Shown here: in pieces, positions 17,529 to 48,365 of the stretch | Layout of the letters: each line of letters begins with the position of its first letter | Numbering within the stretch: position 1 is the first letter of the stretch | NCBI RefSeq assembly: GCF_013167455.1 | Contig: NZ_CP038328.1 | Length of the DNA stretch: 64,000 nucleotides | Strand: one strand, 5' to 3' | Origin: Escherichia coli O157:H7 | Lineage (GTDB): Bacteria; Pseudomonadota; Gammaproteobacteria; Enterobacterales; Enterobacteriaceae | The notes under the pieces: model-generated | What the model was told of the DNA's origin: nothing | Seen by the model: only the letters and a program-made list of their open reading frames with translations | Database searches by the model: none | Made by a program: the position numbers and the translations under genes

Positions 17529-17684
17529 AGATAGTCGAATGGTGGGGAAAAGTCACTCGAATTACGTATGAGATGCCGAATGCCACACTTTGCGTCTTAT
17601 TCCTCCGACGTAAAGTTGTTTACGCAGCAAGCGCGGAGTATGTCATCAGGGTCAAGAATTGAAATTGAGAGATGCCTGAATAGC

Positions 17685-17712
17685 AAAAAAGCGCCTTTAG
17701 GGCGCTTTTTTA
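17685..17712 (-). terminator. Rho-independent terminator at the 3' end of the tRNA array
   Basis: AAGCGCCC-TAAA-GGGCGCTT hairpin followed by TTTTTT on the minus strand, just beyond the last tRNA-Lys. Confidence 0.65.
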
Positions 17713-17715
17713 CAT

Positions 17716-17791
17716 TGGTGGGTCGTGCAGGATTCGAACCTGCGACCAATTGATTAAAAGTCAACTGCTCTACCAACTGAGCTAACGACCC
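17716..17791 (-). tRNA. tRNA-Lys (UUU)
   Basis: 76 nt; reverse complement reads GGGTCGTTAGCTCAGTTGGTAGAGCAGTTGACTTTTAATCAATTGGTCGCAGGTTCGAATCCTGCACGACCCACCA. Confidence 0.95.
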
Positions 17792-17839
17792 ATACGGGTG
17801 TTACCTGAAAGATTTCTACTCGGAACCAATCTTTAAAAT

Positions 17840-17856
17840 TGGTGGGTCGTGCAGGA
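17840..17856 (-). pseudogene. tRNA-Lys 3'-end fragment (17 nt remnant)
   Basis: TGGTGGGTCGTGCAGGA is identical to the 3' end (including CCA) of the intact tRNA-Lys copies, then diverges; upstream context TTAAAATTGG also matches a spacer. Confidence 0.6.
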
Positions 17857-17937
17857 TGACTCGCTTCGCTTGCCCTACGGGCCGTTGCTGACGCAACGTT
17901 ATCCTTCACGCTTAACATCTGAGTTTGATGTTAAAAT

Positions 17938-18013
17938 TGGTGGGTCGTGCAGGATTCGAACCTGCGACCAATTGATTAAAAGTCAACTGCTCTACCAACT
18001 GAGCTAACGACCC
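17938..18013 (-). tRNA. tRNA-Lys (UUU)
   Basis: 76 nt, identical to the copy at 17716-17791. Confidence 0.95.
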
Positions 18014-18016
18014 GAG

Positions 18017-18092
18017 TGGTGGGTGATGACGGGATCGAACCGCCGACCCCCTCCTTGTAAGGGAGGTGCTCTCCCAGCTGAGCTAATCACCC
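18017..18092 (-). tRNA. tRNA-Val (UAC)
   Basis: 76 nt; reverse complement reads GGGTGATTAGCTCAGCTGGGAGAGCACCTCCCTTACAAGGAGGGGGTCGGCGGTTCGATCCCGTCATCACCCACCA. Confidence 0.95.
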
Positions 18093-18143
18093 GATACTGC
18101 GCTGGATACTACAAACTACTTCCACCGAACCCACCGTAATTAG

Positions 18144-18219
18144 TGGTGGGTCGTGCAGGATTCGAACCTGCGACCAATTGATTAAAAGTCAACTGCTCTA
18201 CCAACTGAGCTAACGACCC
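18144..18219 (-). tRNA. tRNA-Lys (UUU)
   Basis: 76 nt, identical to the other tRNA-Lys copies. Confidence 0.95.
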
Positions 18220-18221
18220 GG

Positions 18222-18297
18222 TGGTGGGTGATGACGGGATCGAACCGCCGCCCCCCTCCTTGTAAGGGAGGTGCTCTCCCAGCTGAGCTAATCACCC
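18222..18297 (-). tRNA. tRNA-Val (UAC), one-base variant
   Basis: 76 nt; differs from the copy at 18017-18092 by one base in the variable-loop region (GCCCCCC versus GACCCCC on the plus strand). Confidence 0.9.
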
Positions 18298-18332
18298 GAT
18301 ATTACGCTGGATACTACAACTAACTAGGTTAG

Positions 18333-18408
18333 TGGTGGGTCGTGCAGGATTCGAACCTGCGACCAATTGATTAAAAGTCAACTGCTCTACCAACTGAGCT
18401 AACGACCC
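18333..18408 (-). tRNA. tRNA-Lys (UUU)
   Basis: 76 nt, identical to the other tRNA-Lys copies; first gene of the array (promoter lies at higher coordinates). Confidence 0.95.
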
Positions 18409-18572
18409 ACTTTTTCGTTGCTTTCGGTTTGTTTGATATCCCGTGGCAACGGCGGCATATATTACTGATTTCAGACTTGAGCGCAACAAAAATTTCGATG
18501 TAGATCACTCAACTGCTTATGATTCGCACGACACGACCAGAAATAATGCGACTTCTGGTCGTGTGTTATGCA

Positions 18573-19364
18573 TTACATCGCGTTCAGACGTTTTTGTGCC
18601 TGTTTAGCGCCATCAGTACCAGGGTATTTACTGATAACCTGCTGGTATACGGCTTTCGCTTTTGCGGTGTCACCTTTGTCCTGCATGATGACGCCGACTT
18701 TAAACATCGCATCTGCAGCCTTTGGTGACTTCGGATAGTTTTTCACTACCGAAGCAAAATAGTACGCCGCATCATCTTTTTTACCCTTGTTGTAGTTTAA
18801 CTGACCCAGCCAATAATTGGCGTTTGGCAGGTAAGTTGAATCAGGGTAATTTTTGATGAAATTCTGAAATGCCACCATTGCGTCATCCTGGCGGGATTTA
18901 TCCTGCACCAGCGCAATAGCTGCATTGTAATCCGTGTTTGCATCACCGCTTTTCACCGGCGCGCCAGCATTCGCAGTACCAGCATCAGCTGTCGGCGTCG
19001 TTGATGCCGCCGCACCGCTTTGATCACCGCTGGTTGATTGCGCCGCTGCACCACCGCTGCTGAGGCTGTCGATCTGCAACAGGATCTGCTTTTGCCGCTC
19101 CACGACCTGATTCAGTTGATACTGATTTTCCTGAATCTGACCACGCAGGGAATCAATATCGGATTGATTATCAGAGAGTTGTTGCTGGAGTTGGGTTAAA
19201 AGCTGGCTGTGAGCATTAGAAATACGCTCAAGTTGAATGACGCGGTCTTCGACCGAGCCTGAGCCGACACTACTGATTGGTGCCTGAGCAAAAGCGGCCC
19301 AGGGGGCCGCTATACCAACCAGTAACGACAGACTCAATAGTTGATGTCTGAAGTTACTGCTCAT
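18573..19364 (-). CDS. cpoB: cell-division coordinator CpoB (YbgF), TPR protein
   Basis: 263 aa ORF with signal peptide, coiled-coil and C-terminal TPR repeats; last gene of the tol-pal cluster. Confidence 0.88.
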   Translation of the reverse strand: MSSNFRHQLLSLSLLVGIAAPWAAFAQAPISSVGSGSVEDRVIQLERISNAHSQLLTQLQQQLSDNQSDIDSLRGQIQENQYQLNQVVERQKQILLQIDSLSSGGAAAQSTSGDQSGAAASTTPTADAGTANAGAPVKSGDANTDYNAAIALVQDKSRQDDAMVAFQNFIKNYPDSTYLPNANYWLGQLNYNKGKKDDAAYYFASVVKNYPKSPKAADAMFKVGVIMQDKGDTAKAKAVYQQVISKYPGTDGAKQAQKRLNAM

Positions 19365-19373
19365 GCAATTCTC

Positions 19374-19919
<546 letters not shown>

Positions 19920-48245: not shown

Positions 48246-48365
48246 GCCTGATGCGCTGCGCTTATCAGGCCTACGGGTAATGACTTGTAGGCCGGATAAG
48301 GCGTTCACGCCGCATCCGGCACTGGTTGCCTGATGCGACGCTTGCGCGTCTTATCAGGCCTACGG
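48246..48365. repeat. BIME with three REP units between sucA and sdhB
   Basis: GCCTGATGCGCTGCGCTTATCAGGCCTACG, GTAGGCCGGATAAGGCGTTCACGCCGCATCCGGCA and GCCTGATGCGACGCTTGCGCGTCTTATCAGGCCTACGG. Confidence 0.8.

Follow-up and report, generated by a model that had tools for sequence, protein, structure and literature searches.

The array of tRNA genes analysed here, located in a stretch of 64,000 nucleotides of Escherichia coli O157:H7 DNA (the window), is the O157:H7 allele of the lysT tRNA operon of E. coli, which lies between cpoB and nadA. In our interpretation, this allele has lost a 109-bp unit with one tRNA-Lys gene, the short tRNA-like fragment inside it is the 3' end of TLR3, a tRNA-linked repeat (TLR), and one of its two tRNA-Val genes carries a young substitution, U47G; as a whole, this explanation is held with high confidence. 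The operon, the repeat family and the O157:H7 array are all already known, the array being the annotated reference-genome allele of a heavily sequenced clone. Sequence comparison established the structures described below, the 109-bp gap, the conservation of TLRs by position and the frequencies in the population.

Six tRNA genes were identified by ARAGORN on the minus strand at positions 17716-18408, in the order Lys-Val-Lys-Val-Lys-Lys, and all six were confirmed by the Rfam tRNA model, with scores of 79.2 and 65.9 bits (Table 1). The same six intact genes in the same order had been read from the sequence in an earlier note. No tRNAs beyond these six were found in the rest of the 64-kb window. 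The open reading frame upstream of the array encodes CpoB by its translation, and the RefSeq annotation of matching O157:H7 genomes gives the gene order pal-cpoB-tRNAs-nadA-pnuC. As in the lysT operon, the array is on the same strand as cpoB (ybgF), between this gene and nadA, and consists of alternating tRNA-Lys(UUU) and tRNA-Val(UAC) genes, then several Lys genes in succession and a single terminator at the end. In K-12 MG1655 the locus comprises five Lys and two Val genes, as the earlier note had stated, whereas the window has six genes, four Lys and two Val. The six-gene array is a copy-number variant of the lysT operon and not another operon; it shares with the K-12 operon the location, the identical upstream region, the tRNA-Lys sequence, the gene order and the terminator.

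Within the cpoB-lysT intergenic region, where the promoter would be placed by analogy with K-12, a simple sigma-70 consensus scan gave no match, the known promoter being missed too. The same simple scan missed the terminator after the last Lys gene, probably since the A and T runs on either side can lengthen its stem. The sole match of the scan was a TLR hairpin, on the wrong strand, and the scan was given no weight. Elsewhere in the window, the Rfam CpoB/ybgF RNA thermometer (RF02782, 142 bits) was detected at 19335-19473 on the minus strand, across the pal-cpoB junction, and naRNA4 (RF02564, 88 bits), a family of nucleoid-associated non-coding RNAs, at 48290-48360 on the plus strand.

Table 1. 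Features of the O157:H7 lysT operon in transcription order (window coordinates).
Feature	Position	Strand	Basis
cpoB-lysT intergenic region, with putative operon promoter and leader	18409..18572	-	base-for-base the same as K-12 upstream of lysT (alignment)
tRNA-Lys(UUU), lysT	18333..18408	-	ARAGORN; Rfam tRNA, 79.2 bits; called lysT in the O157:H7 Sakai annotation
tRNA-Val(UAC), valT, with G for U at position 47 (window base 18251)	18222..18297	-	ARAGORN; alignment
tRNA-Lys(UUU), lysW	18144..18219	-	ARAGORN; Rfam; Sakai annotation
tRNA-Val(UAC), valZ, with the usual U47 (window base 18046)	18017..18092	-	ARAGORN; Rfam
tRNA-Lys(UUU), lysY	17938..18013	-	ARAGORN; Rfam; Sakai annotation
TLR3 body (RtT family): position-specific 5' hairpin, then conserved core CGTGAAGGATAACGTTGC..GCAACGGCCCG.AGGGC..GAGTC	17858..17937	-	Rfam RF00391; orthology
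18-nt copy of the tRNA-Lys 3' end ('remnant'), the 3' end of TLR3	17840..17857	-	identity to tRNA-Lys
Constant 48-nt spacer ahead of the next Lys gene	17792..17839	-	kept with or without TLR3: K-48-K in UTI89, K-TLR-48-K in K-12
tRNA-Lys(UUU), lysZ/lysQ fusion	17716..17791	-	alignments with 23AR0303 and O55:H7 CB9615; called lysZ in the Sakai annotation
Operon terminator region ATGTAAAAAAGCGCCCTAAAGGCGCTTTTTTGCTAT	17680..17715	-	same sequence as after lysQ in K-12

Alignment of the window with K-12 contains three gaps, of 100 bp after lysT, of 98 bp after lysW, and one larger block extending from the 3' end of lysZ to a point past lysQ, and the same 18-nt sequence borders every one of them. 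Downstream of each K-12 Lys gene come, in this order, a body of about 80 nt and an 18-nt copy of the tRNA 3' end, which gives K-12 five such 'remnants' compared with one in the window. The window allele differs from the K-12 operon in having one Lys gene fewer, with lysZ and lysQ fused, in keeping one of the five TLRs, those after lysT, lysW, lysZ and lysQ being absent, and in the U47G substitution of valT.

O55:H7 is the serotype generally regarded as the closest relative or progenitor lineage of O157:H7, and it was represented in our comparison by one genome, CB9615. Over the 3.7-kb span from pal to pnuC, the CB9615 and window sequences differ only in three SNPs and one 109-bp gap, which is equal to one 76-nt Lys gene plus a 33-nt spacer. 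The CB9615 layout is K-35-V-2-K-51-V-3-K-146-K-33-K, with five Lys genes; both alleles have K-35-V-2-K-51-V-3-K-TLR3-48-K, to which CB9615 adds the extra 33-nt spacer and the fifth Lys gene, and it has U47 in both Val genes. Comparison of the window with strain 23AR0303 again reveals one 109-bp gap, composed of a 76-nt Lys gene and a 33-nt spacer, plus a few SNPs. The suggestion made in the earlier note, that one Lys copy had been lost between identical repeats, is borne out by the five Lys genes and the gap in CB9615.

The last gene of the array has the upstream flank of lysZ and the downstream flank of lysQ, and the breakpoint of the 109-bp deletion is located somewhere inside its 76 nt; as the recombining genes do not differ in sequence, it is not placeable more exactly. 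One 109-bp repeat unit would have been removed when lysZ and lysQ, which are identical, underwent either unequal homologous recombination or replication slippage; RecA-dependent crossover, slippage and gene conversion look alike in sequence. Four Lys genes are left at the O157:H7 locus. A query containing a whole tRNA-Lys gene found five matching places in O157:H7 genomes and six in most strains, and these match counts suggest genome-wide totals of five and six Lys genes, respectively.

To estimate the frequency of such alleles, 59 genomes were sampled at even spacing, and BLAST coverage bands were used in addition. Alleles were retrieved with a query made of two unique flanks, which returns the full cpoB-nadA span and the gene counts for each genome; it replaced a BLAST search with the whole K-12 array, which yielded fragmented and partly joined matches and tRNA counts that are only lower bounds. 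The commonest state in the sample is five Lys genes (at least 45 of the 59 genomes), four were observed in six or seven genomes, and three and seven in one genome each. Within E. coli the locus ranges from three to seven Lys genes, from one to three Val genes and from zero to five TLRs. The O157-type junction, composed of the 48-nt spacer, a Lys gene and the terminator, is covered in at most 398 of 5,426 complete E. coli genomes.

Several individual alleles illustrate this range. The Lys genes number seven in strain MS21324, with a tandem unit of 124 bp, and three in FDAARGOS_1371; four Lys genes are accompanied by three Val genes in ABU 83972, by one Val gene in strain 729_141114, and by TLRs 1-3 in 2011C-4251. 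In NZ_CP034803.1 (strain 2009C-3554), whose flanks are 100% identical to those of the window, the pal-to-pnuC span contains an insertion of the IS1203 family (5,007 vs 3,693 bp). A non-chromosomal record of 50,485 bp, NZ_CP098226.1, carries one tRNA-Val and one tRNA-Lys gene matching the array, and a few other plasmid records match it as well (15 places on plasmids).

The absence of the fifth Lys gene from O157:H7 could be read in two other ways. Four Lys genes might be the ancestral state, the fifth copy of K-12 and most other E. coli having been gained by duplication. Tandem gains do occur at this locus, as seen in MS21324 with its seven Lys genes, and one cryptic Escherichia species has the array K-V-K-V-K-K. 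This polarity is nevertheless highly unlikely in view of the five Lys genes of O55:H7 with near-identical flanks, the prevalence of five genes in the sampled E. coli, and the conservation in other genera of the very 33-nt spacer unit that is absent from O157:H7. The usual array in 80 cpoB loci of other Enterobacteriaceae is K-V-K-K-K, with spacers of about 45 and 33 nt between the last three Lys genes; a tail of the form K-(41-48)-K-(31-34)-K is common to Salmonella, Citrobacter, Enterobacter, Klebsiella and others, and the spacing K-48-K-33-K is also the layout in other genera. Because other Enterobacteriaceae have the same spacer of about 33 nt, the unit missing from O157:H7 is ancestral, and 'lost' is the right word for it. 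The second alternative, that identical repeats collapsed in the assembly and the true genome has five Lys genes, was mentioned in the earlier note, and collapse is a real risk at this locus: in about 20 of 80 draft genomes of other Enterobacteriaceae a contig ends inside the array or just after it, and tRNA counts from short-read drafts are unreliable here because contigs often end at the array. However, the best 30 matches to the 961-bp array region are all complete genomes, nearly all labelled O157, and 100% identical to the window; Sakai and two EDL933 assemblies have the same array of four Lys and two Val genes; and complete genomes of other lineages resolve five to seven Lys copies at the locus. 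Collapse of the repeats has next to no probability, and an assembly artefact is excluded for the missing Lys gene by the exact agreement of many independent complete O157:H7 genomes with the array. The preferred reading is thus a deletion of the 109-bp unit in the lineage of O157:H7.

The fragment between the last two Lys genes is a separate matter. The earlier note described it as 17 nt matching the tRNA-Lys 3' end; the match is real, but its length is 18 nt, as ATCCTGCACGACCCACCA is identical at 18/18 positions to the last 18 nt of tRNA-Lys, and in this strain the identity runs 7 nt on into the trailer to form a 25-nt direct repeat. The 18-mer occurs five times in the window, in the four Lys genes and in this copy, compared with approximately 0.03 such repeats expected by chance in 64 kb. 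This 'remnant' is the defining 3' end of a known TLR (Rfam RtT) and not debris of a lost Lys gene. Egan and Landy were the first to observe TLRs, in 1978, and Rudd compiled a catalogue of them in 1999. TLRs end in 18-19 bp that repeat the 3' end of the preceding tRNA or 5S rRNA gene, and are defined by this copy; K-12 has 22 of them at ten loci, one to five per locus, and tRNA-linked TLRs have no known function (PMC8144298). Like other members of the family, the element in the window lies after a tRNA gene of the same operon, beginning at the base directly downstream of lysY (17937), and its last 18 bp are the same as the 3' end of this gene (18/18). It is matched by the Rfam RtT model RF00391 at 17840-18006 with 55.1 bits, above the curated gathering score of 45 (E = 5e-8 for the whole window), and is predicted to have the outer helix of the family, in which the core is paired with the 3' copy. 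The same model has five matches in K-12, one per Lys gene. Matches below the Rfam thresholds (Plastid-ycf2, YrlA, RNAI and AgrB) were dismissed as tRNA look-alikes or chance. The body of the element is orthologous to K-12 TLR3 and to TLRs in the same position in Kluyvera, Klebsiella, Raoultella, Enterobacter and others. It differs from the founding RtT RNA, which belongs to the tyrT operon and copies the tRNA-Tyr 3' end, in copying that of tRNA-Lys. Release as a stable processed RNA is known only for the tyrT and rRNA-linked RtT/TLR members.

The spacers are constant in the eleven E. coli cpoB-nadA alleles that we parsed (35, 2, 51, 3, 48 and 33 nt), and the TLR after each Lys gene is optional. 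In strains with five Lys genes, all of TLRs 1, 2, 3, 4 and 5 are present in K-12, TLRs 1, 2, 3 and 5 in strain 789, TLRs 1, 3 and 4 in BL21, TLRs 1, 2 and 3 in LH09-a, and TLR3 only in 23AR0303, while UTI89 has none; the window, with four Lys genes, has TLR3 only. Occupancy thus varies from zero (UTI89) to five (K-12) in many combinations, and the boundaries are always exact at the 18-nt repeat. Among 73 TLRs linked to Lys genes, collected from E. coli and some 30 further species, the invariant core and the 18-nt end are common to all sequences and the first 28 nt or so vary by position. In non-Escherichia genera, the TLRs preceding the spacer of about 33 nt are of the K-12 TLR4 type in 10 of 10 cases, those preceding the spacer of about 45 nt are of the TLR3 type in 12 of 15, and those preceding a Val gene are of the TLR1 type in 13 of 18. 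The position-specific segments match across genera, and therefore the TLRs were in place before those genera diverged.

Absent TLRs are most likely losses, in the form of secondary exact deletions or imported empty alleles. A TLR would once have been present after every Lys gene, with the O157:H7 lineage retaining only that of lysY, and the elements after lysT, lysW, lysZ and lysQ would each have been removed exactly between the tRNA 3' end and the 18-nt copy. The exact boundaries point to removal between the 18-nt repeats; empty alleles could also come by recombination from other lineages. Some elements have other structures: the K-12 element after lysQ duplicates the terminator as well as the 18-nt end, and Enterobacteriaceae RIT714, Franconibacter and Atlantibacter have units spaced at about 156 bp (137-138 nt plus the 18-nt copy), repeated two to three times in tandem, which recall the repeated 178-bp unit of the tyrT locus.

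Three other origins were considered for the 18-nt copy and the element that it terminates. The link between the fragment and the lost copy that the earlier note implied would make it a scar, the truncated end of a deleted fifth tRNA-Lys gene. A fragment identical to the tRNA 3' end and placed between the last two Lys genes would fit such a scar; the link fails, however, as K-12, O55:H7 CB9615 and 23AR0303, all with five Lys genes, carry this fragment too, preceded by the same 80-nt body. Moreover, the fragment belongs to the Rfam RtT family and has orthologues at the same position in other genera, and the actual deletion took the unit downstream of it, leaving the scar with a negligible probability. 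As regards the possibility, also raised there, that K-12 has the same count and the same fragment, K-12 does have the fragment and its count is different. Partial tRNA genes are also known to mark the ends of integrated elements, as attachment-site duplications (PMC9897764), and the window indeed has, shortly downstream of an intact tRNA gene, a copy of its 3' part. Here, in contrast to such duplications, only about 80 nt of conserved non-coding sequence separate the gene from the copy, there is no integrase or cargo, and the element is conserved by position in many genera instead of being strain-specific; this candidate was rejected.

In the third possibility, TLRs are mobile and insert at the tRNA-Lys 3' end with duplication of 18 bp, so that the empty sites of O157:H7 are ancestral and the K-12 insertions recent. 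An exact 18-bp direct repeat flanks the TLRs, strains have or lack them with exact boundaries and in many different combinations, and the 18-nt block, which starts in the T-loop, is similar to the identity blocks that Williams reportedly described in 2002 for integrase attachment sites located in tRNA genes. Against this, each position has its own TLR subtype common to long-diverged genera, the elements are about 100 nt long with no integrase or other gene associated, and decayed, intermediate copies exist. Recent insertion is very improbable, and TLRs as active mobile insertions were rejected on account of the subtypes conserved by position. We therefore retain the reading of the 18-nt copy as the end of an old TLR, and of the empty sites as losses.

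The TLR3 of the window has a predicted folding energy of -33 kcal/mol (z = -3.7). In the consensus fold predicted from 43 Lys-linked TLRs, the core segment CGUGAAGGAU would pair with the first 10 nt of the remnant, AUCCUGCACG, in 9 pairs; inside the predicted helix are a GUUGC-loop-GCAAC hairpin and small hairpins with GAA loops, and ACCCACCA would be single-stranded. The same outer helix is present in the Rfam RtT model, which was built from the tRNA-Tyr version. The columns of the main helix are invariant, and covariation speaks neither for nor against it; compensatory change is seen at two predicted pairs only, in 6 sequences at one and in just one sequence at the other. BL21 (ACGAGCCACCA) and LH09-a, 789 and 2011C-4251 (ACGACACACCA) have single substitutions in the TLR3 remnant, all of them in the predicted unpaired tail and none in the helix-forming part. 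A processing or decoy role for the TLR is plausible.

The two Val genes of the window, valT and valZ, differ in one base, G or U at tRNA position 47, which agrees with the single variable-loop difference reported in the earlier note. Three combinations of valT and valZ at this position were found: U/U in O55:H7, G/U in the window, and G/G in Sakai and both EDL933 assemblies. Because O55:H7 has U in both copies, G47 is the derived state. An exact Val gene with G47 is present in 206 of 5,428 E. coli records, mostly O157:H7 with few others, and G47 occurs in the valZ context in 117 records. The U47G change of valT is a young substitution, frequent only in O157:H7. The mixed state of the window fits a spread of G47 by gene conversion, probably in the direction from valT to valZ. 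Position 47 is normally an unpaired base of the variable loop, and a large effect of G47 is not expected for this reason.

In K-12, all tRNAs of the operon are transcribed from one promoter upstream of lysT as a single transcript, which ends at a Rho-independent terminator; RNase P removes the terminator first and then works in the 3' to 5' direction, and without RNase P, RNase E can cut the long TLR-bearing spacers (PMC4176162). By analogy with these experiments, the O157:H7 operon would likewise have one promoter and produce a single precursor that RNase P cuts to individual tRNAs. Of the six genes for the only lysine tRNA, five are in the K-12 operon, whose deletion failed without a complementing plasmid (PMC11480407). 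A natural four-gene allele is fixed in a major pathogen, which indicates that some reduction in the number of Lys genes is tolerated. The changes in copy number and in the Val genes may have been selected, for example as a tuning of the sole lysine tRNA. A bolder version, in which the operon is no fixed housekeeping cluster but a fast-evolving dosage locus where O157:H7 has fixed a reduced tRNA-Lys dose and U47G is in the middle of its spread from valT to valZ, seems to us unlikely. TLRs may be functional processing decoys, in which the matching core keeps the copied tRNA 3' end in a helix, and if so, their repeated exact loss would alter maturation of the precursor. The lysT locus illustrates how identical tandem genes and 18-nt repeats give rise to exact variation in copy number and spacers.
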